Origin: a virus
Lineage: Duplodnaviria > Heunggongvirae > Uroviricota > Caudoviricetes
IMG/VR virus record: IMGVR_UViG_3300025316_001100
Length of the DNA: 64,000 bases
Strand: one strand, 5' to 3'
Shown here: piece after piece, positions 5,993 to 45,844 of the stretch
Layout of the letters: every line of letters starts with the position of its first letter
Position numbering within the stretch: position 1 is the first letter of the stretch
Position numbers and translations under genes: made by a program
The notes under the pieces: generated by a model
Seen by the model: only the letters and a program-made list of their open reading frames with translations
Database searches by the model: none
Told to the model about the DNA's origin: nothing

Positions 5993-6012
5993 TCTTATAC
6001 ACCCGGACTGAG
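5993..6012 (-). promoter_or_regulatory. conserved 20-bp intergenic element, copy 1 (minus: CTCAGTCCGGGTGTATAAGA)
   Basis: Exact family member. Its TAA supplies the stop of upstream ORF 5995..6402 (..SPGV*), and an RBS and start follow downstream. Confidence 0.6.
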
Positions 6013-6402
6013 CTTTTGTGCCGGTCGCTTCTTGGCTTTGCGGTCATTAAGTTCTCGTTGTAACCGGATAACTTCCTTATTCAACTGAATGATTTCATTT
6101 TGTCTTGACGAAAGGCACGCTTGAAAATGATCGCTACTCACATAATCAATGTCATTCCGCACATCACCCAACATCTTGAATTTCTTGATGGTGGCAGGGT
6201 CTCGACCACTCCTTTTCACAGCCTCTCGCAACGTATCTTCACCCATATCTTTGGTAACATAATATTCGACTTTAATCGGTTTCATAAACCGCTTATCGGT
6301 CAAACAACCACCCAAAAGAAACATCATAGGAACCTGATTCCTACGCTTTTTTCTTGCCTTCCACTGTCGGGCTGTAGTGCATCGAACTTTCCAAAGATAC
6401 AT
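5995..6402 (-). CDS. hypothetical protein (135 aa), coiled-coil C-terminus
   Basis: ORF ending inside the 20-bp element. Confidence 0.5.
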   Translation of the reverse strand: MYLWKVRCTTARQWKARKKRRNQVPMMFLLGGCLTDKRFMKPIKVEYYVTKDMGEDTLREAVKRSGRDPATIKKFKMLGDVRNDIDYVSSDHFQACLSSRQNEIIQLNKEVIRLQRELNDRKAKKRPAQKLSPGV

Positions 6403-6838
6403 CGTAATTTCCTTTCGATTAAATAAAAACGGACACTTGGGGGTGGTATTTCATTATTGGCGTCATTTGGTGTTATCCACTAACTACGATGCTTGCAAGT
6501 CGTCGCAGATCATCTATAACCCCATCGGCCTCCCACCTATACTACACGCCAAGGATTTATCACTCATGCGCATGGCGTCCGTCTTGTTTCAAAAAAGTAA
6601 TGGTAGGCGTACAGTTACGTCAAAGGCAGGGGTTAAACTGGCAATTACACCCTATGGGTCTTACCCACTTTGTTCAGTTCCCAATCGTGCTTCTTCGTAT
6701 GTGCCATAGCCGCCAGTGAGGTTTAGGCTTTCCAAAGTTGCTGTGATAGACGGTTCAATACCGTCCTCTTCCATTCTGGGAACGTGGCCACTCATTAAAG
6801 CTGACTTTCTAGGCCCACTACCTACCACTACTTAATTC

Positions 6839-7525
6839 TTAATTTTCACTTACTTCCTTGCCGCCAGTAATTTCATTTACTAGCCGCACACAAGCCAATG
6901 CATGGGCCAAAGTCACACCGCCCGGCAAGATCACGCTGGGCAGATTCTTGTTGGCTTCGGCCTCGGCTTGCTCCAAAAGTTCTACCGCCTGCTTAATCCT
7001 CACCTTACCCGACTTGACCAATGCAGGACTGCCATTCCTAGCACCTTCATCTTCTTGCATGATGCCTTGAATAGTAGCCAAAGCTGCACCAAAACGCACA
7101 ATGTCTGCTGCACGTTCGCTAGGGGTGGTGATTCGCACTTCGCAGTTTTCATCGCACTGCTCAGGCAAAGTAACACGGAAACAAGACTTTCGGGTATCAA
7201 TACCTTGACGCCGGGCACCACACTGGGGGCACGTCTTCACATACTCTTCTTCCTCAACCCACTTACCCTGCTTGCTCCATTCGGCATCAGGATGCTCCCA
7301 ATGTCCTTTCACCCATTTACGACCACATTGGTGACAAGTAGCACGGGGTTTGCCACCCGTAGCTTTCTCGCCCACCACATCGGCAGAAACAGATACCGCA
7401 CAATCGGACTTCGTACCATTGTCGGTATTCACTCGACACCAACCACCATTGGTATTTTGCCGACCGCCGACACTGACTTGACGATTATCGTTACCTGCCG
7501 TAATATAAACATTCATTCGAGCCAT
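6839..7525 (-). CDS. hypothetical protein (228 aa) with CxxC Zn-ribbon motifs
   Basis: ORF; CHQCG...CPQCG pairs. Confidence 0.55.
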   Translation of the reverse strand: MARMNVYITAGNDNRQVSVGGRQNTNGGWCRVNTDNGTKSDCAVSVSADVVGEKATGGKPRATCHQCGRKWVKGHWEHPDAEWSKQGKWVEEEEYVKTCPQCGARRQGIDTRKSCFRVTLPEQCDENCEVRITTPSERAADIVRFGAALATIQGIMQEDEGARNGSPALVKSGKVRIKQAVELLEQAEAEANKNLPSVILPGGVTLAHALACVRLVNEITGGKEVSEN

Positions 7526-7537
7526 GAATAATCCCTT

Positions 7538-7675
7538 TCATTTAATACAAAAACTGTAAGCAACAGCCACCCAAGCTGCCACTGCTCCTGACACAGAAAT
7601 AGCACAAGCTACCGTAGCCCCGAAGATGGTCCAATCGAATTGATTGCCGATATAAAACCAACTCAGCTTTAGCAT
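7538..7675 (-). CDS. small membrane protein (45 aa, MLKLSWFYIGNQFDWTIFGATVACAISVSGAVAAWVAVAYSFCIK), not in the ORF track
   Basis: 20-bp element, then AGGAG, then ATG 6 nt later; one predicted TM helix. Confidence 0.4.
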   Translation of the reverse strand: MLKLSWFYIGNQFDWTIFGATVACAISVSGAVAAWVAVAYSFCIK

Positions 7676-7685
7676 GACTTGCTCC

Positions 7686-7706
7686 TTGTTATACACCTGG
7701 ACTCAC
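7686..7706 (-). promoter_or_regulatory. conserved 20-bp element, copy 2 (minus: TGAGTCCAGGTGTATAACA)
   Basis: Directly followed by AGGAGcaagtcATG. Confidence 0.6.
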
Positions 7707-7916
7707 GAATCGCAACTGCCATTCAGCATCCCTCTGACCAGCCTGAAACAAGGCCCAATCGTCAGGATACAGACCAATATCATCAAACTTTGCCAAGGTT
7801 TCCTCGCACACCTGCTTTACCTTGGCCCAATCTTTCTTGTTCCTAGCTCTGGTCAAGGCAGACTTGCCAGCCCTGAACGCTTTGGTACAAGTGTCATATT
7901 GAACTTGTGTAGGCAC
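7689..7916 (-). CDS. hypothetical protein (75 aa)
   Basis: ORF ending ..SPGV* inside the element. Confidence 0.45.
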   Translation of the reverse strand: MPTQVQYDTCTKAFRAGKSALTRARNKKDWAKVKQVCEETLAKFDDIGLYPDDWALFQAGQRDAEWQLRFVSPGV

Positions 7917-8344
7917 TATTTACTCCTATGCTTTCGTATCAACTCCACGGCACTCTCTGGATCAATTTCTTCCATGCCCTGAAATCGATCTTCAATCAAT
8001 CGATTGTCTTTCATAGGCACCCACACTTCCGAAGTGTAATTGTATGGGGTACACTCTCCAACCATCCTGCCGCCAACTTCGACAAAACTGATCGAAAAAT
8101 TAACGCCACCCTTAGTTCCGTCATAGTATTCGCTTTCGCAAATTGTAAACGAAACATCAATGTCGTGATCTTCAAACTCTTCAGGATTACCGAAGTGAAC
8201 ACCAAAACTCCATTGGTGCTGATCGCCGCACATGTCTGCCGGTGCATCAACCACGAATCCAGCATCCCTTAAAGCACCCGCTGTTTTCTTTAGGATAGAC
8301 ATGATCCTAGCTTCATACTTTTTCTTGATCTGTTCAGCAGTCAT
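7916..8344 (-). CDS. hypothetical protein (142 aa)
   Basis: ORF; SD AAGGAG after the element at 8364-8383. Confidence 0.55.
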   Translation of the reverse strand: MTAEQIKKKYEARIMSILKKTAGALRDAGFVVDAPADMCGDQHQWSFGVHFGNPEEFEDHDIDVSFTICESEYYDGTKGGVNFSISFVEVGGRMVGECTPYNYTSEVWVPMKDNRLIEDRFQGMEEIDPESAVELIRKHRSK

Positions 8345-8363
8345 TTCAAATCTCCTTGCCTTG

Positions 8364-8383
8364 TGTTATACACCCGGACTCAG
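8364..8383 (-). promoter_or_regulatory. conserved 20-bp element, copy 3 (minus: CTGAGTCCGGGTGTATAACA)
   Basis: Its TGA is the stop of upstream ORF 8380..8613; SD AAGGAG follows. Confidence 0.6.
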
Positions 8384-9175: not shown

Positions 9176-9195
9176 GATTCACTCCTTTGCAAAAA

Positions 9196-9224
9196 TTATA
9201 CTACGCTATCGGCTAATTGTAAAC
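9196..9224 (-). promoter_or_regulatory. sigma70-type promoter TTTACA-N17-(GTAG)TATAAT (minus)
   Basis: Reverse complement gives TTTACAattagccgatagcgtagTATAAT. Confidence 0.6.
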
Positions 9225-9413: not shown

Positions 9414-9747
9414 TGATTAAAAATCCATAGAAACTACCACAAGTTGCGTCCATCGTGTAAAAGACACATTGCCCAACCAAGCCTGCGATAAGGACCACTG
9501 CCTGCCTATTGAATAAGATTCTTGCCCATGATTAAAGGGTACGGTTGTGGGAATTAAAATCATTTTCATTTAATTGACACCTGATCGTTATTGACCATCG
9601 CACACGACATGAACCTATTCAAAGATCCCAACATGGAAATCGCTCGTTCGTTTTTTCGACTACCAAATTGATGATTGGTACTTAACGACTTTATCTTCGT
9701 GCGCCCTATAGACCGGCCATCAAGGCATATTACTTTGAAAATGCGTT

Positions 9748-11606: not shown

Positions 11607-11819
11607 CTATTGATCTTCCTTTTGATCGAACACGCAATGGCAATCGGTACATCGGAATCGATTTTTGAACATTCGTCCCAAACTTAAAACGTATGGAATA
11701 AATTCCCGTACCGATACTGGTTCAGTATAACGAACCACTCTACCTTTGAAGATGCCCTTGTTATTAGCCCCACACTCTGGACATACTGCATTGTAGATTC
11801 CCGATTGCACAATGCTCAC
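11607..11819 (-). CDS. Zn-ribbon protein (70 aa)
   Basis: CPECG ... CTDCHC motifs. Confidence 0.4.
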   Translation of the reverse strand: MSIVQSGIYNAVCPECGANNKGIFKGRVVRYTEPVSVREFIPYVLSLGRMFKNRFRCTDCHCVFDQKEDQ

Positions 11820-12445
11820 GATTTAACCTTTACTTTTTTCGGCCTTTCGACCGTGGTTTCAATTACATCGCCAGTACGCACTACCGGCACAGACATTCTC
11901 ATGTCACAAGGACGCACTCGCAGTTCCACATTGTCCAAGTCGATCCGGCCCTTGGCCTTGACCGTTTCCTTGATGCACTTGGCAAAGGGGGCAATGCTAT
12001 CGTTCGCACGCTTTTCCCATGCCGTAACACGCTGGGCCTCAGCCTTAACTTCGTCGGCCTTGATCGTGTGACTTTCACCCTTGGCATCAAACCAAGTAAC
12101 GTCATGCACTTCCCGGCCCTCATCGGACGCACGATCCAATTCAACACAAACCGTGGCAGCACGCCGCAAATTATCCTCAAGGAAGCCGGGGCTAGTTGCC
12201 ACGACCCAGGACAAAACTTTGTCCAACTTCACACCCTTGAATCGGTCAGTTTCGTAATCCTCACCGATCTTAACATCCATTGAATATTCGATGACGCCCG
12301 AAACATGGCTCTCGCCAACGGGCAGGGGCAATTCCTCACGAATCTGGTCCGAAAGGCTCTTACCCTTACTTTGGGATGCCAGCACCTTGCCCACAAAGAC
12401 AAGATCCTGTTTCCGATCACCACTGATTTGCTGATTCTTAGCCAT
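11816..12445 (-). CDS. hypothetical protein (209 aa)
   Basis: ORF; SD AAGGAGAA; preceded by the 20-bp element and a sigma70 promoter. Confidence 0.55.
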   Translation of the reverse strand: MAKNQQISGDRKQDLVFVGKVLASQSKGKSLSDQIREELPLPVGESHVSGVIEYSMDVKIGEDYETDRFKGVKLDKVLSWVVATSPGFLEDNLRRAATVCVELDRASDEGREVHDVTWFDAKGESHTIKADEVKAEAQRVTAWEKRANDSIAPFAKCIKETVKAKGRIDLDNVELRVRPCDMRMSVPVVRTGDVIETTVERPKKVKVKS

Positions 12446-12467: not shown

Positions 12468-12487
12468 TCTTATACACCCGGACTGAC
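12468..12487 (-). promoter_or_regulatory. conserved 20-bp element, copy 4 (minus: GTCAGTCCGGGTGTATAAGA)
   Basis: Lies 18 nt downstream of the promoter -10 at 12506-12511 and upstream of the SD. Confidence 0.6.
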
Positions 12488-12505: not shown

Positions 12506-12534
12506 ATTATACTACAGAATTCGGAATTGTAAAC
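12506..12534 (-). promoter_or_regulatory. sigma70-type promoter TTTACA-N17-(GTAG)TATAAT (minus)
   Basis: Reverse complement gives TTTACAattccgaattctgtagTATAAT. Confidence 0.6.
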
Positions 12535-14935: not shown

Positions 14936-15232
14936 GATTTTCCTTTGAAAAAGAATCGCAACAGTCATTCATGACAACCAATTTGGTCGCACCTATTTAT
15001 GAGCTAACTAGGCTACTGGTGCTGTTACTGCCTGACCATACACCTGTTGCGATTCAAGGAGGCCCTCCCCGCCATAGGCGGGGAGGGCCTAAGTCCACCT
15101 TCTTTTTGTTTCAAAATACCGGATGCCGTTCCACGCCGAACGGCTTGTTCACACAGGTCATGACACTGGTGTGGCCCACTTCGGATTAGCCTCACGGCTT
15201 CCAACTTCTCGTAACTGCACATCCGGTATTCT

Positions 15233-15250
15233 CTTATACACCTGCACTCA
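15233..15250 (-). promoter_or_regulatory. conserved 20-bp element, variant copy 5 (minus: CTGAGTGCAGGTGTATAAGAG)
   Basis: Variant with GTGCAGG instead of GTCCGGG; lies in a 430-bp gene-free region. Confidence 0.45.
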
Positions 15251-15261
15251 GGGTATTAAAT

Positions 15262-15377
15262 TGCAGATAGTGGAATCGAACCACTTTTCTCCCCCATATG
15301 GCGGGGGCGAGTTAGAGTATCCTAATTCTAGCTCCCAAAGAGACTTTAAGGATGCCCACCACATTTCTCTAATCTGC
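15262..15377 (-). ncRNA. tRNA-like structured element (TpsiC arm AGTGG-TTCGATT-CCACT and a CCCCC-GCCATAT-GGGGG hairpin carrying CAT), closed by a GCAGAT/ATCTGC acceptor-like stem. No canonical 72-90 nt cloverleaf could be completed by hand
   Basis: The minus strand reads ...GCAGATTAGAGAAATGTGGTGGGC...CGCCCCCGCCATATGGGGGAGAAAAGTGGTTCGATTCCACTATCTGCA. It is flanked by two copies of the 20-bp element. Confidence 0.3.
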
Positions 15378-15383
15378 TACATG

Positions 15384-15404
15384 GTGTTATACACCGGGAC
15401 TCAC
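15384..15404 (-). promoter_or_regulatory. conserved 20-bp element, copy 6 (minus: GTGAGTCCCGGTGTATAACAC)
   Basis: Its TGA is the stop of ORF 15401..15784. Confidence 0.55.
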
Positions 15405-15784
15405 TTTGGCAACAGCCCTTCACGTTCCAGAACAGCACGGGCAACAGTGATTTCTGCTTGCCGACGACGTTCAGCCATAGCTTGCTCTTCTGTCTCTCGT
15501 TCTTTCTGTTCACGCTCGATTTCACTTTGGATATAGGTGTCCCAATTCTCTTTCGGCCCAAGCAGAACTGCTACAGGCACATTAATCCAACCCTCTTCTT
15601 CAGCACCATAAGCACCATGCCAATGCCACTTAATGGAAACAGATGTTTCATCCATCTGTACCTCACTAAAATGCTGAGCAGCAAAGTTTCTGTTCAAAAA
15701 CCGATATTGTAGAGCATAATGCTCGGCCACAGTATCGATCTCAGCTTTTTGTTTAACTAGGGCTTGATATGTTTGAATGTTCAT
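15401..15784 (-). CDS. hypothetical protein (127 aa)
   Basis: ORF. Confidence 0.55.
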   Translation of the reverse strand: MNIQTYQALVKQKAEIDTVAEHYALQYRFLNRNFAAQHFSEVQMDETSVSIKWHWHGAYGAEEEGWINVPVAVLLGPKENWDTYIQSEIEREQKERETEEQAMAERRRQAEITVARAVLEREGLLPK

Positions 15785-18181: not shown

Positions 18182-19267
18182 CTAAACCGCAGCCAATTCG
18201 GCACCTAATGCATCGTCATCGGTAACTTCATCTTGATCTTCATAAAGATCATCATTTTGGGCATCTACGCCAGTTACGCAATTATTAAGATGACAGATGA
18301 TTGTATCAAACTCTTCTCCGTTCCGATCATATTGACGGGATGCAAAAGATCGCAAGGCCGCAGGGCTGTAATGCAGTCCAATTTCATGACCTTGTTTAAT
18401 CGTCTTTTCCATCCAAGCACAAACCGCATCGGCATCGGTACTGTTCAACTTGGGAGCATCGCCTGCCGGGGCAAGAATCAAACGATTCCCACAGCCGCAC
18501 TTTTGAAACGCTCTTGATGCCTCAATGTCAACATAGCTAGGCAGATCGAATCGATCCTTTTTAGCCGTTTCAATTTCCTCTACTGGGGGAAACTCATGTT
18601 GGCAAGAAGGGCAAACCTCTACGGTTCGGCCTACGATGATTTTGCATCCAGGGCATTCTTTTCGCCCACGACCACTCTTATCGTAGACCTCCACCTTTTT
18701 GACAAACTCTTCACTACCGCAAGCACAATGCTTGTGAACAGCCGCCATGAATTGGCTGCACTTGGCACACTGCTTTCGGCCAGGACCAGCTTCGCTATAT
18801 GTCTGGACAGCCTTGGGGGCCTTTGGTTCAACTACTCTCTTAACGAATTCAGTAGAACCACAAGCACACTTTAACAATACGCTGGCAATATACTTGTGAC
18901 AGCCCGCACACTGCTTACGACCCTTGCCCGGCTCCTCATGAAGCTGGATCGGCTTGGGGCCTAGCTGAATCGCTTTCTTAATGAATTCTGTAGACCCACA
19001 AATGCAAGCCTTCAAAATTGCACCCACATACTTGTGGCACTTGCCACACTCTTTTCGGCCTTGGCCCGGCGTGTCATAAGTGTTGATGATTTTCAGCTTT
19101 GGGGCTTTGGGTTCCTTGGGAAGCTTTGGGGCCTTGGGAGCCTTCACTACCTTTGGTGGCCTAGTCCCTCCACCCTTTACGGGGAATTGATAGCCACAGT
19201 AGCACTCCTGAAGACGAACTCCGCACGGTGTACCACATTCCTTGCAAATTTTCTTTCCAACTGGCAT
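18182..19267 (-). CDS. Multi-zinc-ribbon repeat protein (361 aa): four or more tandem units G(R/K)GRK(E/Q)CxxCxxx(10)CxCGSxEFVKK, with a KAPKxPK-rich linker
   Basis: Internal protein repeats are visible directly in the translation; function unknown. Confidence 0.6.
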   Translation of the reverse strand: MPVGKKICKECGTPCGVRLQECYCGYQFPVKGGGTRPPKVVKAPKAPKLPKEPKAPKLKIINTYDTPGQGRKECGKCHKYVGAILKACICGSTEFIKKAIQLGPKPIQLHEEPGKGRKQCAGCHKYIASVLLKCACGSTEFVKRVVEPKAPKAVQTYSEAGPGRKQCAKCSQFMAAVHKHCACGSEEFVKKVEVYDKSGRGRKECPGCKIIVGRTVEVCPSCQHEFPPVEEIETAKKDRFDLPSYVDIEASRAFQKCGCGNRLILAPAGDAPKLNSTDADAVCAWMEKTIKQGHEIGLHYSPAALRSFASRQYDRNGEEFDTIICHLNNCVTGVDAQNDDLYEDQDEVTDDDALGAELAAV

Positions 19268-19306: not shown

Positions 19307-19326
19307 TCTTATACACCTGGACTGAC
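19307..19326 (-). promoter_or_regulatory. conserved 20-bp element, copy 7 (minus: GTCAGTCCAGGTGTATAAGA)
   Basis: Its TAA is the stop of ORF 19309..19698 (..VSPGV*). Confidence 0.55.
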
Positions 19327-20596: not shown

Positions 20597-20669
20597 TCAA
20601 AGGTTCGCAATCACTTGCCAGCACTTGGTGAATTACCCCTCCCACAAGGGGAGGGGCTTCCAATCTAAC

Positions 20670-21893
20670 TTAACTGCTTGTCAATGCGACAAGACTTACA
20701 TTAGAACTCAATTGGCTATCCCCTGCATTCCGCAGGTTCATCATTCTTAAACCTTCGTTTAAGATATTCTTACTCGCATTGTAATCTCTATCGTGAGGCG
20801 TAAAACAATTAAAACAAGTCCAATGGCGTTCTTCCCCTAAATCACGATATCTCCATCCACATTCACTACACAATTGGGAAGATGGAAACCATCGGTCTAT
20901 TTTAATTATTTGTCTTCCATACCACTTTGCTTTATACATCAACTTTTGAACAAATGACGAGAAACAACAATCATTTAATTGGCGATGAAGTAATTTTTCT
21001 CTCCATCGCTTCTCTTTCCTTTTTTCTGGGTCTTTGTTTTTCAGCATTGATTTTACACTTAAATCTTCAATAACTATGACTTGGTTCTCATCAATTATTT
21101 TTTTAGATGTTTTGTGTAAGAAATCTTCACGAACATTACTTTGCTTTACTTTCAACTTATTTAACGCTAATTTACTTTTGTTTCTACGATTGCTTCCTTT
21201 AACTTTTCTGCTAACGGAACGAGCAAGGAAGCGTTCTCTTGACTTATATTTTGTAGTAGCAGGACGAGGATTAGCGAACCTTTCATCCTCACTACTTACA
21301 ATATATTGAACATTAAGGTCTAAACCTACAACTTTAATTACTTTGGGTAATTCTTCTATTTCTTTGACACAAGTAATAGAAACAAAGTATTGATTGGCTT
21401 TGTTTTTGCTAATTGTGGCAAACTCAATTTCACCTTCTAATGGTCGGTGAAGGATGATTGGGATGCCTTCAAGGAACTTCGGTATGACTAATTTATCATC
21501 AATCACTTTAACATTTTGTGGCACACGGAATGACTGCTTGCCGTGTCTTTTCTTAAATCGTGGGAAACCACACTTACCTTTGAATTTGCCTTGTTTCTTT
21601 AACTTACATTTTTCAAAGAAATTATCAAAGCCATTCTGTAATTGGCGTGCTGCGTATTGAAGTGATTGACTACCGACTTCCTTCAACCATTCGTATATTT
21701 GTTTCAATTCAGGAATACTTGTGGCGTTGTCATAATAATTTAATGACTTATGTTCTTCACCTTTATGAGCATCAATGCGAGAACGGAGAAACTGATTATA
21801 CAAAAACCTTACGCAACCAAAGTGTTTGGCTAAAAGTATTTGTTGTTGCTCCGTTGGATACAACCTATATTTATAGGTAAATTGATGCTTCAT
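20670..21893 (-). CDS. tnpB: TnpB/OrfB transposase-associated RNA-guided nuclease family protein (407 aa)
   Basis: N-terminal YKYRLYPTEQQQILLAKHFGCVRFLYNQFL (the OrfB helix-turn-helix signature); C-terminal CSECG...WTCFNCF...DRDYNASKNI (Zn-finger plus the RuvC-III motif). Confidence 0.8.
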   Translation of the reverse strand: MKHQFTYKYRLYPTEQQQILLAKHFGCVRFLYNQFLRSRIDAHKGEEHKSLNYYDNATSIPELKQIYEWLKEVGSQSLQYAARQLQNGFDNFFEKCKLKKQGKFKGKCGFPRFKKRHGKQSFRVPQNVKVIDDKLVIPKFLEGIPIILHRPLEGEIEFATISKNKANQYFVSITCVKEIEELPKVIKVVGLDLNVQYIVSSEDERFANPRPATTKYKSRERFLARSVSRKVKGSNRRNKSKLALNKLKVKQSNVREDFLHKTSKKIIDENQVIVIEDLSVKSMLKNKDPEKRKEKRWREKLLHRQLNDCCFSSFVQKLMYKAKWYGRQIIKIDRWFPSSQLCSECGWRYRDLGEERHWTCFNCFTPHDRDYNASKNILNEGLRMMNLRNAGDSQLSSNVSLVALTSS

Positions 21894-22135
21894 TTGTTGG
21901 GTTTTGTCGCCTTTTTAATTGGATAAACTTGTTCTAACGCCTCTCTTATGAGGTCTGAAAGCGTTAAGTTTTCATTTCTTTCAAGAGACAATTTGTGAGA
22001 CATTTGAGTTAAATGTTCTGCTTGTTCATCTTCAAAATTGACACATATCTTTTTCATACTACAATTATATAGTAATCTAATTATATTTTTCAACACTAAT
22101 TCCAAATTATTTTCACTTATTTTAGTGGCGGGCAT
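21890..22135 (-). CDS. hypothetical protein (81 aa) inside the IS region
   Basis: ORF overlapping the tnpB start by 4 nt; no recognisable TnpA (Y1 or serine) motifs. Confidence 0.3.
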   Translation of the reverse strand: MPATKISENNLELVLKNIIRLLYNCSMKKICVNFEDEQAEHLTQMSHKLSLERNENLTLSDLIREALEQVYPIKKATKPNK

Positions 22136-22407
22136 TCATCCCCTACCACAAGGGTTTGACCTAGTTCGCATTTTCACTCGCTCCGCTCGTTCAACGCTCA
22201 CAGGTCAAACATTTCTGCGAAATGTAGAGGTTTTCTGCCCGCACGACCTATAAAGCATTGGCTTGCCGTCCTTTACTCCTCCAAACCAAATATCACAATG
22301 GCCACGAAACACGCCACCACACGTATCGTTACGGATGATGCAGGCCAATGCGCCATTCGACGGCTTATATCGCACAAAATCACGAATTGTTTGCATTTGA
22401 TTTTCTC

Positions 22408-22653
22408 CTAAAAACTCAACTCACATTGAAGAAGCTTACCTTTTTCATCATGGAAAACATTTGTTGCCATTAAAGAAATTGACAAGCCTCTATGGAATGT
22501 AATTTGATAACAGGACGATCCATCTGTCTCCCATTCAGTTTCGGCATCGTATTCATCAATAGGAATGCCATAAGGCCGAAATAAATCTCTAGCCTGAACA
22601 ACCAACTGTTCGCTGATTTCTCGTTTTTCTTGATCGTCTTGGTTAATCACCAT
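22408..22653 (-). CDS. hypothetical acidic protein (81 aa)
   Basis: ORF. Confidence 0.45.
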
Positions 22654-23389
22654 TGTCTAATCCGCTTTCAATAAACCTAGTGACTTCAGTCAAAACTTGC
22701 CGATGTTTAGTGTTGTCAAAGTCTTTTAATTTGACAATAGCAGCCTCCCGTAAACGCACCAATCGAGCATTTTCGACTTCGATTGCTGTCATTTCCGGCA
22801 CCGTTAAATCAATAGGTGTCAAGGTCGCAGGATTAGACTCGCCGGGCCGGGCACTATATGCTGGGCTTTCAACAATGTTGCCGTAGTGTGGAGTAAAAGT
22901 ATCTCCCAACTGCATCATTTTAGGGAAATAAGAATGATAAATATGACCATCATTTTGACGCCGTGACAAATCATGACTCGACCACTTGCCTATCATAGCA
23001 ATAGGTTTCAACACATTGCCCTGACGACCCTCTTTATCTTCTCCGTAAACAACTTCACAACGAACAAAGTTTTCAAAACCATTATTGTAATGAAGAATCT
23101 GACCGACCTTTAGATTGGCATAAAAAGAATCTTGAACGCTCATGGACTGCTCGAACATCCGTTCCATGCCGACCGATGCAAGAATTTCTTTGGACGTAAA
23201 CACCTTACGGGTTCCGGCCCAATCACTATCGATTTCTGTGCCGTCTTGCAACTTGAATTTCTCATTAACGATTGCACACATCCATACTCCGCTACCCTTG
23301 GACAGCTTTACCTCCCATAGGGGATTACTATCGGCATAGTGATACCGAAAACGCATACCCTTACTAACTCGCTTACTAACAGTCTTCAT
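22643..23389 (-). CDS. hypothetical protein (248 aa)
   Basis: ORF. Confidence 0.55.
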   Translation of the reverse strand: MKTVSKRVSKGMRFRYHYADSNPLWEVKLSKGSGVWMCAIVNEKFKLQDGTEIDSDWAGTRKVFTSKEILASVGMERMFEQSMSVQDSFYANLKVGQILHYNNGFENFVRCEVVYGEDKEGRQGNVLKPIAMIGKWSSHDLSRRQNDGHIYHSYFPKMMQLGDTFTPHYGNIVESPAYSARPGESNPATLTPIDLTVPEMTAIEVENARLVRLREAAIVKLKDFDNTKHRQVLTEVTRFIESGLDNGD

Positions 23390-23410: not shown

Positions 23411-23430
23411 CTCTTATACACCTGGACTCA
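23411..23430 (-). promoter_or_regulatory. conserved 20-bp element, copy 8 (minus: GTGAGTCCAGGTGTATAAGA)
   Basis: Followed by GGAAGATGAAAGGACCAATAATATG; its TAA is the stop of 23414..23647. Confidence 0.55.
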
Positions 23431-26723: not shown

Positions 26724-27027
26724 AGTAATCGGGATCGCCCTCGACAGCCGTGGCAGTCAATGTCAGGATGTTGCCCTTCAATTCACGATCCCATGTCACG
26801 GACAAAATGCCATTCGGCAAATCAATGTCCAATTCGCTCACGAAATCGTCAGCACATTCGTTGTACCAACCAATCTCTTCATCGGTCAATTCAATCTGAA
26901 CTTCTCCATCCAAACCAGCTAAAAAATCGTAGCTAGGCAGAGGCCCAGCCCCAGCATTGGATGGGTAGTCCCCAGGATCATCCCAACGATCCATTTCAAC
27001 TTCCAACGTATTCTTAATCGTCTTCAT
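26665..27027 (-). CDS. hypothetical highly acidic protein (120 aa)
   Basis: ORF. Confidence 0.45.
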   Translation of the reverse strand: MKTIKNTLEVEMDRWDDPGDYPSNAGAGPLPSYDFLAGLDGEVQIELTDEEIGWYNECADDFVSELDIDLPNGILSVTWDRELKGNILTLTATAVEGDPDYCDNDGPEYDPMDRYDREDY

Positions 27028-28260: not shown

Positions 28261-28281
28261 TGTGTTATACACCCGGACTCA
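28261..28281 (-). promoter_or_regulatory. conserved 20-bp element, copy 9 (minus: CTGAGTCCGGGTGTATAACAC)
   Basis: Lies 24 nt downstream of the promoter -10 and upstream of the 28223 start. Confidence 0.6.
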
Positions 28282-36726: not shown

Positions 36727-37084
36727 CTGCACTTTTACAATTTCGTTCATCTTCACGAAGAAGTCGTAGCCGATCTTTTCGGCATGTGTCGATTGTATCC
36801 GCAATGGCGATCAGAATTTGCTCCATCCCTTCTTGCTGGCCGATTAGCCCAAAGAAGAAATCCGCAAACACACTGTTAATGTACGGTCCCAAATCCTGAT
36901 TGTACGCTTCGTGCCGTTTGCTCAAACTCACTGACGAAGTGTAAAGGCCCCATTGCCTCGCCCATTCCATGACCACGCCTACAGCTTTGACATCGCTTAT
37001 AAAAGCCCGGTCAAGCGTTTTATCGTCCTCGCCGTGCAATTCAAATTGCTGACGAATAACATGTTTGGCTTTTGAACGATCCAT
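36722..37084 (-). CDS. hypothetical protein (120 aa)
   Basis: ORF. Confidence 0.5.
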   Translation of the reverse strand: MDRSKAKHVIRQQFELHGEDDKTLDRAFISDVKAVGVVMEWARQWGLYTSSVSLSKRHEAYNQDLGPYINSVFADFFFGLIGQQEGMEQILIAIADTIDTCRKDRLRLLREDERNCKSAG

Positions 37085-37350
37085 TATAATTGATCCAAAA
37101 TCTCTTGGGTAATTTCCACCCGCCTGTTGTGTCCTACAGTCAATACATCACCAATTTTTACTTCTATCGGTGCCGATAGATCAGTAATCGGGTTGTCATT
37201 CAGCTTAACGATGCCGCCAACAACCAACCGCCGACCCTCAGATTGACTCACTACCATTCCAGCCCTTGCTAGTAGCTTGGCCGGAAGGACGCTCTGTGTT
37301 ATACACCCGGACTCACGAAATTTCTTCTGGTCGAAAAATATTAGATCCAT
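37084..37350 (-). CDS. S4-like RNA-binding domain protein (88 aa)
   Basis: LPAKLLARAGMVVSQSEGRRLVVGGIVKLNDNPIT...IGDVLTV fits the S4 (Hsp15/TyrRS C-terminal) pattern. The 20-bp element sits inside this ORF, in the non-stop frame. Confidence 0.4.
   Translation of the reverse strand: MDLIFFDQKKFRESGCITQSVLPAKLLARAGMVVSQSEGRRLVVGGIVKLNDNPITDLSAPIEVKIGDVLTVGHNRRVEITQEILDQL
37296..37316 (-). promoter_or_regulatory. conserved 20-bp element, copy 10 (minus: GTGAGTCCGGGTGTATAACAC), the only intragenic copy
   Basis: Encodes ..RESGCIT.. within ORF 37084..37350. Confidence 0.5.
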
Positions 37351-37664
37351 TATGCTGCCTCATCTATGTTAAGGGTCACACCCAACCGATCTGCAATCTC
37401 TTGGGCACATAAATTTTCAAAAACTGCTCGAAACTGCATCGCAGGATTATTATTCATGGTTCTTGCCAAGTCCTGCGCCCACTGGGGGACATTTTCTTTG
37501 ATTTTTTGCTTATTTACTCGGCAAAGATAACATGATTCTGGATGTTCGCAGTGGTCCATGTGTCGTAGATCACGACCCAGTATCACTAGCCGATCAGCCA
37601 TTGTCATGGTTTCGCACTGTGACATACTTTCCAAGAACTTCGCAATCATTCCCATTATATTCAT
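37350..37664 (-). CDS. hypothetical protein (104 aa)
   Basis: ORF; RBS GGAGG after the element. Confidence 0.45.
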   Translation of the reverse strand: MNIMGMIAKFLESMSQCETMTMADRLVILGRDLRHMDHCEHPESCYLCRVNKQKIKENVPQWAQDLARTMNNNPAMQFRAVFENLCAQEIADRLGVTLNIDEAA

Positions 37665-37684
37665 GTCATTACCTCCTACACCTT

Positions 37685-37703
37685 CTTATACACCGGAACT
37701 CAG
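37685..37703 (-). promoter_or_regulatory. conserved 20-bp element, variant copy 11 (minus: CTGAGTTCCGGTGTATAAGA)
   Basis: Its TGA is the stop of the upstream ORF; followed by AGGTGTAGGAGGtaatgacATG. Confidence 0.5.
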
Positions 37704-37996
37704 GGTTCATCACCCTCGTCGTCCTCTGCCAAGCGATGTTCCACAAAAGAATCCAAGTGTAGGCCCTCATAAATATCGGCTACACTCATAGTTTTGCCAT
37801 TTGGCATCTTGATCTGCTCCTGCCAAATAGATTCATCCTCCATCACAACCGCTTCCGTCGCTCGTTCAATTACCTGTTGAGCAATTGGAATAAACGAATC
37901 ATGAATCGGAGGGTAATGATTTGCTGTCAAGTGCCAATGAAGAGCCTGTTCTTCGTTGGTAAAATTCAACATATCGTCAATACCTAAACGTCCCAT
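37700..37996 (-). CDS. hypothetical acidic protein (98 aa)
   Basis: ORF. Confidence 0.45.
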   Translation of the reverse strand: MGRLGIDDMLNFTNEEQALHWHLTANHYPPIHDSFIPIAQQVIERATEAVVMEDESIWQEQIKMPNGKTMSVADIYEGLHLDSFVEHRLAEDDEGDEP

Positions 37997-41705: not shown

Positions 41706-42926
41706 TCAGGCTGCCTTCACTTCAAAATCATCGGGATCATAATTACCGAAATCCAGGGCTGGAATGTCGATCTTCACCGCATCTTCGCCCAGATTCGGAA
41801 TACCCCGCTTGTTCAACTCATCAATACCCGCCATCGTCAGCGAGTAGCCCTGACTGGTCACTGCAACCAATGCAGGTTCATTCTCCGTAGCTGTCAGCAA
41901 TGGTGGCATCAGGTAATGAATCAATTCTTCCTCTTTGCAACCTGCATAAAGGATCAATCGACTACGTGGGATTGCTCCCTGTTGGCCCAATGCCGCCAAT
42001 ACCGTAATTCGCTGTCGGGTCATGCCATACGGATCAATGTCATTGTCACGGGCCACAGCCGCCGCAACCTGTTCCCAGGATACTGCGCCCTTATGGCTCT
42101 GAAGTTCGTACTCGGCCCGCATGTCAACAGCAAACGCCAGGGCTTCACGTGGAACCCGCCAGCAATACTTTGCTACCAACTTGCAAACGCTCATATCCCA
42201 ATCGGGATTTGCACGACGCACGATCTCTGCAATTTCATCCCGGCCATACAGATTCAAATAAATCTTTCGGAACCGGGTATCAAAAGCATCAAACAATAGA
42301 CCACGATCCGTGGTCGCAATAATCCAGCAAACCCTACGGCAATCGGCAGTCCAACCATCGCCCAAAGACAGCATACCGTCTTTCGGTTCGGTTGCCTTCA
42401 ACAATGCCTGCACAACCGGATTCGGCAAAGCATGTACTTCGTCAATCAATGCCACGGTTGGCGGAATGACAAAGACCCTATTCTCATCTGGGTTTAATCG
42501 CAAGGTGATGGGATCACCACCACTTTGTTCATAAGCCACACGATCAAGAACATCGGCAAATGCTTCAACAATATCCAGAGCATTTTGAACTGCCTTCGGC
42601 TGAATCTCAACATAAGGCAACAAAGTCGTCTGGCCGAACAATCGTGCCAGAGTCGTCTTACCCGCCGATGAACCACCGATCAAAGAAAACTGCTGATCGC
42701 CACCAGCATGGTTTTCACGGCCCCACATTTGGTACGCCGCCCGGCTCAATCGCCGCTTCGCCTTGTCGTTGCCCACAAACTTGGACAACGGGCAATCGGG
42801 ATTCTGATGGCTAGTCTTCCACTGACGCTGCTCGACCGACAAGCCAGTATTGAACAACAACTGGTTCTGTGGGCCGGGCTCTCGCACCAGCAAAGGACTC
42901 AAGATTGTTTTGTTACCTTTACGCAT
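41706..42926 (-). CDS. RuvB-like AAA+ ATPase (406 aa)
   Basis: Walker A GGSSAGKTTLARLF; Walker B VALIDEVHAL; sensor and arginine region IIATTDRGLL..FDTRFRK; C-terminal winged-helix segment resembling the RuvB domain III pattern. Confidence 0.55.
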   Translation of the reverse strand: MRKGNKTILSPLLVREPGPQNQLLFNTGLSVEQRQWKTSHQNPDCPLSKFVGNDKAKRRLSRAAYQMWGRENHAGGDQQFSLIGGSSAGKTTLARLFGQTTLLPYVEIQPKAVQNALDIVEAFADVLDRVAYEQSGGDPITLRLNPDENRVFVIPPTVALIDEVHALPNPVVQALLKATEPKDGMLSLGDGWTADCRRVCWIIATTDRGLLFDAFDTRFRKIYLNLYGRDEIAEIVRRANPDWDMSVCKLVAKYCWRVPREALAFAVDMRAEYELQSHKGAVSWEQVAAAVARDNDIDPYGMTRQRITVLAALGQQGAIPRSRLILYAGCKEEELIHYLMPPLLTATENEPALVAVTSQGYSLTMAGIDELNKRGIPNLGEDAVKIDIPALDFGNYDPDDFEVKAA

Positions 42927-42977
42927 TTTTCACACCTTATAGTAAAAGCCCACCCGGCACACGCCGGGTGGGCTCTC

Positions 42978-42999
42978 TGTGTTATACACCCGGACTCAG
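42978..42999 (-). promoter_or_regulatory. conserved 20-bp element, copy 12 (minus: CTGAGTCCGGGTGTATAACACA)
   Basis: Lies 4 nt downstream of a GTAGTATAAT -10 box at 43004-43013 and upstream of the RuvB-like gene. Confidence 0.55.
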
Positions 43000-43008
43000 G
43001 GTATTATA

Positions 43009-44043
43009 CTACGCAGAAGCCCTTTTGGGACGTTGTGCTTCGTAAGTTTTCTGAATCTTGGCAATCGCACTGTTGAACGCCAACCGGGTGAATCGCCGGG
43101 AATACGGCTTACCAGTATTGGGATTGATGTTGGCAGCCGCCACTGCTGTTTGCCAACCTTTTTCCCAATGCTCACCAAGCAATTCCTTGTTCGGCTGTTG
43201 GAAAGCCATCAGTACAGCATTTTCAAACGGGGTAAGAACCGTTTCTCGAATCGCACGACGTTGATCGTGATCTAGCAATTCAGGCACCGGCCGCAACTCA
43301 TCGGAAAACAACGTCTCAAATACGGCTGAATCTCCATCCACTGCACTTCCTTCATGCTTGGATGACATGCTTGTGGCATGATACGTTTCGGTCAACGTAG
43401 CTTGCACAATCGCACATTCATTTTCGTTGAATCCCAAGTATGCCGTCACTTCATCAAAGGTGGCAGGCCGATTAAAATCAGCACGGCCCTCTTCGTAAAG
43501 CATATGCAATTTACGAGCCTCATTTGACCAGGGGGACAACGGATTGGCCTTATTGACCGCACCCGCCAACTTCCTACGAACGCAATGGTACAAATAGGTC
43601 ATAAAAGCAATGTTGGTATCGGTGTAATAGTACATCGCATTGATGGCACCGATGATGCCTTCATCGTAATAATCTTGAAACGACAAGATCATTTCGGGAT
43701 GAGCCGACGCATACCGATAAGCCAATTTTTCAATGCAACGGGTATAACCACATAGAATCTCCATACGAATATCGGTTACCGCCTGAATCTTTTCCAGGGA
43801 CTTGGCATCCAACTTAATACCACGAATAGAACTCACTACGCCCTTCTTCATGGCATCAACCAGTTCGTCACGAAAGTCCGCTCGGCTGTAAGACTTACGC
43901 TTGATGTCAGCAATTTCTACAACCTGATCGTACATCTGCTTTAGGGCCTTATTACCCCGACGCATAACCTTCGCCAACTGATCCTTCCGTTCCTTAGACA
44001 AGGGCATATACGGAAGGGTTTCGTGATCGGCTACAATTCGCAT
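43009..44043 (-). CDS. sigma-70 family RNA polymerase sigma factor-like protein (344 aa)
   Basis: Region 2-like FQDYYDEGIIGAINAMYYYTDTNIAFMTYLYHCVRRKLAGAV (compare DLIQEG.IGL.KAV.KFD...FSTYA.WWIRQ); region 4-like LDHDQRRAIRETVLTPFENAVLMAF ... FTRLAFNSAIAKIQK. Confidence 0.55.
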   Translation of the reverse strand: MRIVADHETLPYMPLSKERKDQLAKVMRRGNKALKQMYDQVVEIADIKRKSYSRADFRDELVDAMKKGVVSSIRGIKLDAKSLEKIQAVTDIRMEILCGYTRCIEKLAYRYASAHPEMILSFQDYYDEGIIGAINAMYYYTDTNIAFMTYLYHCVRRKLAGAVNKANPLSPWSNEARKLHMLYEEGRADFNRPATFDEVTAYLGFNENECAIVQATLTETYHATSMSSKHEGSAVDGDSAVFETLFSDELRPVPELLDHDQRRAIRETVLTPFENAVLMAFQQPNKELLGEHWEKGWQTAVAAANINPNTGKPYSRRFTRLAFNSAIAKIQKTYEAQRPKRASA

Positions 44044-44097
44044 GATTCAAAATCTTTCTGATAAAATGGGTAACTTGTTATTTGCGTTTCCGCCTCA

Positions 44098-44117
44098 TGT
44101 TATACACCTGGACTCAC
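44098..44117 (-). promoter_or_regulatory. conserved 20-bp element, copy 13 (minus: GTGAGTCCAGGTGTATAACA)
   Basis: Upstream of the sigma-like gene; its TAA is the stop of 44100..44402. Confidence 0.55.
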
Positions 44118-44402
44118 TTGATTTTTCACCTCTTTCGCCCGAAATCGGGCCAAACCCTCAGCAAAAGCCGCTTCGGGAGTGGCACACCAGCCGCAAATGC
44201 CGGTGTTATACCAAGAACCGTTCTCAGTACCGGGCATGATACTCTTTGGCCCCTTGCTGTCAAGACCATTCCACCACGTCGGACCATTGCTCCAATCCAG
44301 AACACAGTAAAAATAGGGGGTTCTGATAGTGGAGTCGTTCCAATCCACGTTTTCGGGATCATCATCAGGGACTAAGTGAACTTCAATTTTAGGATTTTGC
44401 AT
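44100..44402 (-). CDS. hypothetical protein (100 aa)
   Basis: ORF ending ..QVSPGV*. Confidence 0.45.
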   Translation of the reverse strand: MQNPKIEVHLVPDDDPENVDWNDSTIRTPYFYCVLDWSNGPTWWNGLDSKGPKSIMPGTENGSWYNTGICGWCATPEAAFAEGLARFRAKEVKNQVSPGV

Positions 44403-44430
44403 TTTTTACTTTCATTATGAGTCTGCTCCA

Positions 44431-44450
44431 TCTTATACACCTGGACTCAC
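44431..44450 (-). promoter_or_regulatory. conserved 20-bp element, copy 14 (minus: GTGAGTCCAGGTGTATAAGA)
   Basis: Followed by TGGAGCAGACTCATAATGAAAGTAAAAAATG. Confidence 0.55.
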
Positions 44451-44456
44451 TTGATT

Positions 44457-44492
44457 TCTCTGTTGCCACAAGAATTCTTGTGGCAACAGAGA
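44457..44492. repeat. Perfect 36-bp palindrome TCTCTGTTGCCACAAG-AATT-CTTGTGGCAACAGAGA (contains GAATTC)
   Basis: 16-bp perfect stem with a 4-nt loop, between the terminator hairpin and the 20-bp element. Confidence 0.6.
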
Positions 44493-44523
44493 AATCAGCC
44501 CCCACGGCCGGGTGGCCGTGGGG
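44486..44523 (-). terminator. Rho-independent terminator (minus: CCCCCACGGCC-ACCC-GGCCGTGGGGG then CTGATTTCTCTG)
   Basis: Perfect GC stem directly after the 44540 gene end. Confidence 0.5.
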
Positions 44524-44539
44524 GCTATCATCCAGCGGT

Positions 44540-45004
44540 TTACTCAAACTGTTGGCACCAATACGGAGTGCCTTCTGGCGAAACGTAGCCAGCAATACCG
44601 ATTTTACGATAACCGGGATTGAGAATGTTGGCTCTATGACCAGACGAATTCATCCACTGGACCATTACACCATCTACAGTAGATGATCCCATTGCGATGT
44701 TTTCCGCACCATCGACTGAATGAACCATTTGTCGATTATTGGCCATCCAACCGCAATGGCGGCGAGCCCGCATATGCACAATGGGGTCCAAAATCAACGC
44801 TGCCAAACCGTATCGTTGCCGTTCGGCATTGACTTGATTAAGCAACTGGGTTTCAGTCGTATACACAGGGGCTTTGTCCACAACTGCGTTTTGAGACGCC
44901 GCCGTAGAACCCGTAGAGTTGCTATAACCCCTACGGCCCCGTGCATGAGCAACTGAACAAACACACAGACACAACACAGCACACACGATTGTTCTCAGCT
45001 TCAT
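44540..45004 (-). CDS. Secreted CAP/SCP (YkwD-like) domain protein with an N-terminal signal peptide (154 aa)
   Basis: MKLRTIVCAVLCLCVCSVAHA signal peptide; then LNQVNAERQRYGL..L......A..HC.WM......HS..GAENIA.....V..W..S.GHRANIL.P.Y...G.A......G.YW.Q.F matches the CAP pattern. Confidence 0.55.
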   Translation of the reverse strand: MKLRTIVCAVLCLCVCSVAHARGRRGYSNSTGSTAASQNAVVDKAPVYTTETQLLNQVNAERQRYGLAALILDPIVHMRARRHCGWMANNRQMVHSVDGAENIAMGSSTVDGVMVQWMNSSGHRANILNPGYRKIGIAGYVSPEGTPYWCQQFE

Positions 45005-45062
45005 TGGATTCTCCTTGTACTGAGACTATCAATAGATAACCAAACCATCCAAAAGGTTCGGT

Positions 45063-45272
45063 TCAAACGCTTGCTTTAGACAATTCTCGCCAACGGTCCA
45101 GGTGGGTAAACGCAGCGATGATAGTAAGAATATCATCCTTAGAACGAATTCCCCACAAGGCTGCTGCGCATTCACGATCAGCGACCGGCAGCTTATCAAT
45201 ACTTTCCAAGTATTCTTGGTAATTTTCAGCCGGATGCTGTTTTCGCCACTCGTACAGATGGTCACGAATCAT
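45063..45272 (-). CDS. hypothetical protein (about 70 aa, start at the internal Met MIRDHLYEW...)
   Basis: Trimmed from track ORF 45063..45353 to remove the overlap with 45262..45477. Confidence 0.35.
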   Translation of the reverse strand: MIRDHLYEWRKQHPAENYQEYLESIDKLPVADRECAAALWGIRSKDDILTIIAAFTHLDRWRELSKASV

Positions 45273-45477
45273 TTTCGTCCTCCAAATTTTCGAAACTGTT
45301 GTCGTTATCGTAAAAACGGTATTTCCTGCCCCTAAATGAAAACACCCGACCATTCAATTTACGTTGATACGTCATAGCTCCAACACTACCATCGATAACC
45401 AATCGAGCATAGATTTCTACAACGTCACTAGCAAGTCGTTTCACGCTAATGATTTGATGGGGTCTGGTAAATGGCAT
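45262..45477 (-). CDS. hypothetical protein (71 aa)
   Basis: ORF. Confidence 0.4.
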   Translation of the reverse strand: MPFTRPHQIISVKRLASDVVEIYARLVIDGSVGAMTYQRKLNGRVFSFRGRKYRFYDNDNSFENLEDENDS

Positions 45478-45806
45478 TAGATTACAATCATCTTATGATA
45501 AGCTGGATCGTTGGGATCATTAACTCGACGGAAATATTCTTCCGATTCAGTTAATTTACCTTCCAACCAATAACAGGGAACGGTAATAACGGCAAATAGG
45601 GTTCGGTTTTCAAATCGACCAACGACGTATTTACGACGAATGTTTACACCGTCAGCACCACAGGTTGCCCGCCAAGCCGTTGCAAGATTGACCGCTGCGT
45701 TCAAATCAAATTCAGCTTCAAGGACGAAGGCTTCAAATAAATGCCAATCTTCGGCCCGACCACCGGACGATTCAGAAACAACGTGAACAATATCTCGATA
45801 TTCCAT
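45477..45806 (-). CDS. hypothetical protein (109 aa)
   Basis: ORF; RBS GGAGGAATTTTTATG after element copy 15. Confidence 0.5.
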   Translation of the reverse strand: MEYRDIVHVVSESSGGRAEDWHLFEAFVLEAEFDLNAAVNLATAWRATCGADGVNIRRKYVVGRFENRTLFAVITVPCYWLEGKLTESEEYFRRVNDPNDPAYHKMIVI

Positions 45807-45825
45807 AAAAATTCCTCCGGGGCAG

Positions 45826-45844
45826 CTTATACACCCGCACTGGA
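45826..45844 (-). promoter_or_regulatory. conserved 20-bp element, variant copy 15 (minus: CCAGTGCGGGTGTATAAGC)
   Basis: Variant; precedes the RBS of 45477..45806 and lies directly downstream of the iteron block. Confidence 0.45.

Follow-up and report, generated by a model that had tools for sequence, protein, structure and literature searches.

A recurrent 19-bp element as a candidate promoter for a divergent phage-encoded sigma factor in a group of uncultivated large phages

What function is served by a short sequence that recurs, always in the same orientation, among the genes of an uncultivated phage? The stretch of caudoviricete DNA analysed here in its whole length of 64,000 nucleotides (nt) (IMG/VR record IMGVR_UViG_3300025316_001100, hereafter the window) carries small genes, of which nearly all are encoded on the minus strand, and belongs to a phage found in several metagenome assemblies. 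A first-pass annotation of the window had described 15 copies of an element of about 20 bp, in one orientation and confined to 5.9-46 kb, and a DNA pattern search confirms this with coordinates that agree within 2 nt. Fourteen copies of TGAGTCCRGGTGTATAASA are found at up to three mismatches, all on the minus strand, where 0.03 are expected by chance (dinucleotide-preserving shuffles of the window); 14 of the 15 copies have at most two mismatches, and a looser search adds a weak fifteenth, CCAGTGCGGGTGTATAAGC, with four. All 15 lie on the gene strand between 5993 and 45843, and the string GGTGTATAA has 15 minus-strand occurrences and a single one on the plus strand. No copy is present in 1-5.9 kb or 46-64 kb, where the sole candidate (55006) has five mismatches and lacks the core, and within the window the element does mark the boundary between two genomic modules that had been proposed. 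In the explanation that we consider probable, the element is a phage-specific promoter, most likely read by host core RNA polymerase together with the sigma factor encoded at 43009-44043; promoter activity, start site, cognate factor and timing are proposed here from sequence comparison.

By collection scans, the element occurs across a family of metagenome contigs from freshwater and sediment. Absence from related genomes with conserved gene order had been named as a sign of a recombination scar; the element is present in relatives, and there also at recombination junctions. Among 185,579 bacterial and archaeal genomes there was no multi-copy element, only 13 single chance matches, and a literature search for 14-mers of the element found no paper containing them. 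A relaxed 14-base pattern run against IMG/VR returned about 100 chance singletons and otherwise only extended to the contig end the occurrence in one relative, phage B (IMGVR_UViG_3300022555_003222, matching the 172-kb Ga0118677_10000093; its IMG/VR contig is 130.8 kb, and analyses cover 42.5 kb unless stated). In phage B, 42.5 kb contain about 63 copies (21-22 per 14 kb), every one of them on the gene strand, with a median spacing of 479 bp that places one before almost every small gene, and the leader that follows the element is stereotyped (agnaGCagaAAGGAAaCCAAncATG). Because phage B and the window have essentially no common proteins by tblastx, orthologous positions are not comparable between them.

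In a logo of the anchored window copies, the element forms a single contiguous block in which A3, G4, T5, C7 and G9 to A17 are invariant; on its flanks are a weakly A-rich patch (about -8 to -6) and a weak rrAGCr (positions 21-26). The conserved core comprises positions 3-19, positions 1-2 being variable in phage B, where they mostly spell stop codons. Read as a promoter, the core would be AGTCCnGGTGTATAAS (positions 3-18) followed by A19, with TATAAS (positions 13-18) as the -10 hexamer and AGTCCnGGTG as the -22 to -13 region (spacer and extended -10). Positions 13-17 are invariant in 15/15 window copies and in nearly all of about 62 phage B copies. The upstream block would largely substitute for a -35 element, leaving a weak G..WA trace at the canonical distance: in the window logo as in that of phage B, G(-11), W(-8) and A(-7) are weakly conserved at the expected -35 location, and GAAAY stands at -35 distance in 4/15 window copies. 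Transcription would start about 7 nt downstream, at C25/R26, which are conserved in both logos and fit -1/+1 positions. A sigma54-type -24/-12 arrangement was rejected, as GG (9-10) and GC (24-25) are 15 nt apart and a sigma54 promoter needs 12.

Host sigma70 needs T at the last -10 position and has a TTGACA-like consensus -35. At that position (18) the element has C or G in 15/15 window copies, never T, and thus departs from the host sigma70 (group 1) consensus; in phage B, C or G is found in 60/63 copies and T in 2/63. Promoters of the host type are present as a separate class. By k-mer counting, GTAGTATAAT occurs 10 times on the window minus strand, and 13 copies of aGTTTACAA-N12/13-GTAGTATAAT (TTTACA and TATAAT separated by 16-17 bp) lie on the gene strand between 1322 and 55959, the same consensus being found in relatives L035, L037, L038, L025 and L032. 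Judged by sequence, these are near-consensus host sigma70-type promoters, and probably early promoters. Because the two coexist and position 18 is C or G, the element appears to be a class distinct from the sigma70 type, and the earlier proposal of a second, independent promoter class gains comparative support. As had been noticed, three copies (42980, 12468 and 28263) lie 4, 19 and 24 nt downstream of a TATAAT box. The 42.5 kb of phage B contain no TTTACA-N16/17-TATAAT promoter and no other promoter candidate.

The role of TATAAS can be approached through a further relative, phage C (IMGVR_UViG_3300018080_000116; loci L101 1859-8750 and L138 4884-13950), whose sigma homologue has 35% identity to that of the window. 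Its gene strand bears 16 TGTATAAS sites, 11 of which are CCGAACC-N17-TATAAGGGGGCGA (TATAAG) and five AGTyCnGATGTATAAS; the 11 copies of the bipartite motif, gaCCGAACCtttt-N10-GTGTATAAGGGGGCGA, are interspersed with the five. Since phage C thus joins, in the canonical arrangement, a CCGAACC -35 and a 17-bp spacer to the same TGTATAAS block, TATAAS would act as a sigma-type -10 hexamer, and the AGTCCnGG block is, on this comparison, an alternative upstream half to the phage C -35.

The proposed factor is a divergent protein. A Pfam scan of the open reading frame (ORF) 43009-44043 itself gave no match at E = 0.01; the ORF matches the PHROG 'sigma factor' and PDB entry 3mzy, SigH (E = 1.9e-6, residues 123-186, region 2), and Pfam Sigma70_r2 (PF04542) is precomputed on its homologues P0002, P0004 and P0005. 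With a profile of seven sequences, only sigma factors were matched in PDB (profile E = 1.8e-7, region 2), and the alignments run from region 2 toward region 4 (FliA residues 38-204 of 247; RpoD 374-587 of 613); the sequence alignment has a region-4-like C-terminus (LTxFExAVL...GWQxxVA...TGKPYSR). The AlphaFold model is poor (predicted local distance difference test score 62.5, with region 2 below 50 and the C-terminal part above 80), and when it was used with Foldseek all top matches were sigma chains but template-modelling scores were low, which is weak support. On these homologies the ORF is identified as a sigma factor, and the earlier nomination of this sigma-family ORF as a candidate for the TATAAG-like half is strengthened by comparison, the profile having matched nothing but sigma factors.

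It is the distribution of the sigma gene that links it to the element. In tblastn searches of 50,697 phage records, the sigma-like protein and its AAA+ neighbour match only LR756511 (L001), an unannotated 595-kb 'uncultured phage' record, and no cultured-phage record; as single queries for related loci in IMG/VR the two proteins returned nothing. The sigma gene is followed by the AAA+ (clamp-loader-like) ATPase gene in every lineage (window 41706-44043, L035, L037, L038 and L001), an order held even in LR756511, where sigma identity is 25%, and both genes carry the promoter-like element of their lineage. The element co-occurs with sigma orthologues of 89, 67, 54 and 35% identity and is more strongly conserved than any other sequence ahead of the sigma gene in the window, L021, L035 and L037, the position of the copy at 44098 being kept in all three relatives. 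Where sigma identity falls to 29% and 25% the element is missing, and CTGTACCCA and GCAGCTGTAC stand at the same two positions. The corresponding patterns, aaCTGTACCCAa in L038 and ttGCAGCTGTAC in LR756511, each have eight gene-strand copies and none on the opposite strand, lie upstream of both the sigma and the AAA+ genes, and in several cases stand 27-65 nt upstream of start codons; both are candidate promoters for the divergent sigma orthologues. TGTA is common to all lineage variants. Sigma gene and promoter thus appear to have diverged together in four lineages (AGTCCnGGTGTATAAS, GAACC-N17-TGTATAAG, CTGTACCCA and GCAGCTGTAC), a series that would be useful for studying the evolution of sigma specificity. 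From this covariation and the conserved self-placement, the best available argument, we infer that this sigma reads the element with host core RNA polymerase, and it is proposed that the sigma-AAA+ module feeds back on itself because both genes carry a copy.

A comparable arrangement is found in phiEco32, whose sigma factor gp36 recognises one element, tAATGTAtA, starts having been measured 6-8 bp downstream of it (PMC8948821); there, as proposed here, one conserved -10-centred element has little or no -35 (PMC8948821, PMC4331800). In phiEco32, as would be the case for the window phage, host core RNA polymerase is redirected by the phage sigma and the genome also has early promoters of the host sigma70 type, and a TGTATA core is common to both systems; starts at the phiEco32 distance would fall near position 23-25 of the element. 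The element differs in its length of 17-19 bp rather than 9 bp, in its own AGTCCnGG upstream half and in its numbers, with 15 copies per 40 kb in the window and about 63 per 42.5 kb in phage B against six in phiEco32; gp36 has been reported to be without region 4 homology, whereas the window sigma shows a region-4-like C-terminal segment. The T4 late promoter (TATAAATA) is likewise -10-only and is read by gp55 with gp33 and the sliding clamp. The two systems are alike in a promoter that starts with TATAA and a divergent phage sigma, here neighboured by a clamp-loader-like AAA+ protein; however, the consensus after TATAA differs, the element has a long conserved upstream block, and, in contrast to the truncated gp55, the window sigma has alignments that reach from region 2 toward region 4. 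The description that best fits present sequence comparisons is that of a new promoter consensus, of unusual length, for the divergent sigma of a group of uncultivated large phages.

Several observations weigh against a promoter read by this sigma. A contiguous block of 17-19 bp is atypical for a sigma promoter and more like that of a single-subunit RNA polymerase. Complete hairpins with 12-bp stems begin at position 21-22 of several copies and would be truncated by a start at 25-26, and a few ORFs start at position 20-22 without a Shine-Dalgarno (SD) sequence, which fits an earlier start site or read-through translation. The terminator at 44496-44527, if efficient, leaves the sigma gene without a conserved host-type promoter. 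In phage B no sigma homologue was detected in the 42.5 kb, nor by a low-sensitivity pattern scan of the 130.8-kb contig. Covariation with lineage would be equally expected for another lineage-specific factor. A TTGACA-16-TATCAT sequence at 44236-44263 had been considered as an early promoter of the sigma gene and was dropped, as it is not conserved in L035 or L037.

Several of these observations would be accommodated if the element were a promoter read by another factor, either a phage RNA polymerase encoded outside the window (a T7-like single-subunit enzyme or another polymerase) or host sigma70 redirected by an activator that binds AGTCC, as in the appropriation by MotA/AsiA of T4, an explanation that we regard as unlikely. 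The contiguous block, the weak conservation to position 26 and a TATA near the likely start recall the -17 to +6 layout of T7-type promoters of about 20 bp; the hairpins and ATGs just mentioned fit a start near 17-20; the two upstream-half variants on one -10 in phage C would fit an extra factor; and no sigma homologue was detected in the examined phage B sequence. However, the 95 window ORFs scanned for families include no RNA polymerase, single-subunit or other (nor structural genes, nor any integrase or recombinase family), and the phage C form, a -10/-35 promoter around the same block, is typical of the sigma family. The sigma gene is moreover preceded by the element in three lineages and covaries with it, and C or G at the -7 position speaks against host sigma70.

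The element could alternatively be a recombination site for mobile single-gene cassettes (attC-like or another recombinase target) with promoter activity secondary, which we consider improbable, even though junctions between relatives fall within it. The relative L025 equals the window except for a 359-nt insertion of one gene (109 amino acids (aa)) flanked by two copies, both alignment blocks ending in window copy 8364-8382. A deletion of 470 nt distinguishes L030 from phage B, the 19-nt overlap at it being the element, and the L030 copy at 3621 is chimeric, joining the upstream flank of one phage B copy to the leader of the next. Homologous cassettes are ordered differently in L031 and L028 than in phage B, and in phage B itself (L002 5803-5881, minus strand) a 60-nt unit of hairpin, element and leader is duplicated in tandem. 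Because identical copies flank single genes, a secondary consequence of the proposed promoter arrangement would be that recombination between copies adds, removes and reorders genes in related phages, a side role like that of the T4 cassettes discussed below. A dedicated recombination site is argued against by the absence of an inverted repeat or predicted structure, which with the lack of a recombinase family among window ORFs also sets the element apart from integron attC sites, by its -10/-35 anatomy and by its position before RNA genes. Homologous recombination at repeats of 19 bp and more explains the junctions, as it does for the promoter-early stem-loop elements (PeSLs) of T4-type phages (PMC2839356), and since most indels between the window and its close relatives lie off the element, its part in recombination is probably minor in the window phage.

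PeSLs are mobile regulatory cassettes (PMC2839356, PMC4122927), and resemble the element in being short promoter units, often beside a stem-loop, before single small ORFan genes in variable regions, with the indel or replacement junctions of close relatives in the unit and gene order shuffled. They differ in that the PeSL promoter is a strong host sigma70-type early promoter, whereas the element is not of sigma70 type and its stem-loop is optional (on the upstream side of 14/62 phage B copies and at 1-2/15 window copies). A further proposal, possible though doubtful, is that the element is at once a sigma-regulon promoter and the substrate of an organised gene-cassette system. If so, the huge phages of this group would maintain single-gene cassettes by the dozen, arranged in arrays, and every cassette would have an identical 19-bp promoter whose invariant TAA or variable first bases give the preceding gene its stop; cassettes could be excised, inserted and reordered via the element with the frame and expression of their neighbours intact, making an integron-like accessory-gene store without an integrase.

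A role at the RNA level, with polycistronic transcripts from sigma70-type promoters being processed at the element or translation stopping and restarting there, seems very improbable. The copies have the sense of the genes, and the claim that the element doubles as a stop codon holds: upstream ORFs end inside it at 8/15 window copies, five at the TAA of positions 15-17, which explains their ...SPGV* ends, and three at the TGA of positions 1-3. Because ORFs upstream of phage B copies also end in the element (32/57, positions 1-2 there mostly spelling TGA, TAA or (x)TAG), the overlap is general. GGTG could moreover serve as an SD for the rare ATGs at 20-22, and two copies shortly downstream of sigma70-type -10 boxes would be transcribed. 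In the promoter explanation, we read the overlap as extreme packing of the promoter against the preceding gene, whose stop would be supplied by positions 1-4 or the invariant TAA at 15-17. Against an RNA-level signal, RNAalifold predicts 0 pairs and no consensus structure in or around the element, and its distance to the start codon ranges from 0 to more than 50 nt (in phage B the usual distance to ATG is 20-22 nt). The earlier statement that 14 copies lie 5-40 nt before an SD and start codon holds for the 10-11 that have a start codon within 40 nt and is otherwise overstated: two copies stand at 53-54 nt (sigma and AAA+ genes), one before a tRNA-like gene and one within a gene. The intragenic copy (37297) does lie, as had been said, in an S4-domain ORF of 88 aa (start ATG at 37350 as taken by gene callers; Pfam S4 match at residues 25-63), of which it encodes residues 12-18.

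Also at odds with an RNA-level signal are the absence of other promoter candidates in 42.5 kb of phage B, the bipartite promoter form in phage C, and the RNA genes and terminators near the element. Because copies precede a tRNA-like gene in the window and, by 115 nt, the tRNA-Glu gene of phage B, the element is not tied to translation. ARAGORN with its intron option identifies the tRNA-like gene (15260-15379) as tRNA-Ile(gat), with a long variable arm and an intron of 21 nt; the gene was missed by ARAGORN at default settings and by Rfam at the gathering score, neither of which gave any match in the window, and there is a weak cyano_tmRNA-like match at 15240-15285 (E = 0.2). The gene is conserved in L015, and its 5' end coincides with position 25 of copy 15385, which, like the conserved C25/R26, is an indirect hint of the proposed start. 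Terminators are found ahead of the element: a strong GC-rich hairpin with a T-rich tail precedes 14/62 phage B copies against about three expected (1/15 window copies has a strong upstream hairpin), and L031 copies come after hairpins with T-runs.

Finally, an operator for a repressor or other regulator beside unrecognised weak promoters would suit the position between genes and the strong conservation over about 17 bp that is typical of protein-binding sites, but we attach hardly any likelihood to it, the element being non-palindromic, containing its own TATAA -10-like block and having no other conserved promoter element alongside, while the density in phage B (about 63 copies in 42.5 kb) would give nearly every gene an operator.

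Table 1. Coordinates of the copies of the element and of further features in the window and its relatives
Feature	Sequence	Coordinates	Strand	Context
Copy, TCAG variant	window	5993..6011	-	ORF 5995-6402 ends at its TAA; ORF 5779-5970 starts 22 nt downstream
Exact copy	window	7687..7705	-	upstream ORF ends at TAA; 45-aa ORF starts 11 nt downstream
Exact copy	window	8364..8382	-	upstream ORF ends at TGA; ORF 7916-8344 starts 19 nt downstream
Copy, TCAG variant	window	12468..12486	-	19 nt past consensus sigma70-type promoter 12506-12533; ORF 11816-12445 starts 22 nt downstream
Copy, 1 mismatch	window	15232..15250	-	9 nt after tRNA-like gene; downstream ORF doubtful
Copy	window	15385..15403	-	ORF 15401-15784 ends at TGA; tRNA-like gene follows, no ORF downstream
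Copy, TCAG variant	window	19307..19325	-	upstream ORF ends at TAA; ORF 18182-19267 starts 39 nt downstream; L015 diverges from the window directly after this copy
Exact copy	window	23412..23430	-	upstream ORF ends at TAA (SPGV*); ORF 22643-23389 starts 22 nt downstream
Exact copy	window	28263..28281	-	ORF 27027-28223 starts 39 nt downstream
Exact copy	window	37297..37315	-	within S4-domain ORF 37084-37350; stop-free frame reads ESGCIT
Copy, 2 mismatches	window	37684..37702	-	ORF 37700-37996 ends at TGA; ORF 37350-37664 starts 19 nt downstream
Exact copy	window	42980..42998	-	4 nt downstream of GTAGTATAAT box; followed by 12-bp-stem hairpin 42947-42974, SD and ATG of AAA+ (clamp-loader-like) gene 41706-42926
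Exact copy	window	44098..44116	-	upstream ORF stops at its TAA; sigma gene 54 nt downstream
Exact copy	window	44431..44449	-	after hairpin 44496-44527 and a second hairpin; ORF 44100-44402 starts 28 nt downstream
Weak copy, CCAGTGCGGGTGTATAAGC	window	45825..45843	-	ATG of ORF 45477-45806 18 nt downstream
Divergent sigma70-family protein, 344 aa	window	43009..44043	-	candidate factor for the element
tRNA-like gene	window	15260..15379	-	perfect T-arm, 6-7 bp acceptor stem; apparent target of copy 15385
Intrinsic-terminator-like hairpin	window	44496..44527	-	14-bp stem, T-rich tail; upstream of copy 44431
GTAGTATAAT boxes	window	1322, 3677, 9195, 12506, 16647, 20086, 26071, 30190, 34060, 39125, 43003, 46911, 55959	-	
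12-bp-stem hairpins	L002	10680-10730, 8285-8330, 7250-7297, 3565-3609		
12-bp-stem hairpin	L004	10420-10466		
aaCTGTACCCAa pattern copies	L038	981, 4294, 5920, 7761, 8440, 9956, 10960, 13527	+	
ttGCAGCTGTAC pattern copies	L001	10172, 17729, 18148, 19869, 29581, 33489, 33608, 34858	+	

The transcription programmes of uncultivated huge phages are essentially unknown, and although the class of mechanism is familiar, the element would offer for this group a concrete, testable candidate pair of promoter and sigma. With two promoter classes in the region, expression units could be read from sequence. Copies at individual genes, with junctions in the element, would broaden the 'mobile regulatory cassette' idea from T4 to include a phage-specific promoter, and an orthogonal sigma with a promoter of 17-19 bp is a possible, tightly specific expression part.

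The sequences immediately downstream of the element have features of their own. The 12-bp-stem hairpins are near-identical (gatcgttccgcc...ggcggaacgatc and variants), lack a T-run and begin 2-3 nt after the element; they may serve to stabilise 5' ends or represent mobile hairpin modules. In L015 (6308-6355, plus strand) a strong terminator-like hairpin with a T-run, ataccggatgccgtt...aacggcatccggtatttt, begins 3 nt after an element copy, and the orthologous window site (about 15190-15231, after copy 15232) is without a hairpin. The 115-nt leader between the element and the tRNA-Glu gene is conserved between L004 (8142-8256, minus strand) and L031 (about 2520-2660, minus strand) and reads gtgccgcc...cccctaaccttgtc...aggggcggttg. 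An ORF-free stretch of about 85 nt after the element, ttgagcagaagggcattacttgggatggtcgatatgcgaagcc...agagcggggttcccgtag, is found in phage B (L002, about 9450-9535), L030 (1063-1150) and L028 (about 710-795) and, being kept in a divergent relative, may represent a small RNA.

As to the remaining content of the window, a megablast search with 7 kb of it found no match among phage records, and the family scan of its ORFs yielded homing endonucleases, TnpB, NUDIX, SPFH, CoaBC-like and similar accessory functions. Homing-endonuclease-type genes (HNH, LAGLIDADG and endonuclease VII families), typical of large lytic phages, lie at 61331-62218 (minus strand) and elsewhere. A TnpB / IS605 OrfB gene (20670-21893, minus strand; Pfam OrfB_IS605 and Cas12f1-like_TNB) was considered for a link to the element and set aside, the nearest copies being more than 1 kb off and no copy lying at the edges of the segment (20628-22249) that is missing from L015. 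The absence of this segment of about 1.6 kb from so close a relative suggests a recent insertion of an insertion sequence; L035 has a TnpB at a different place.

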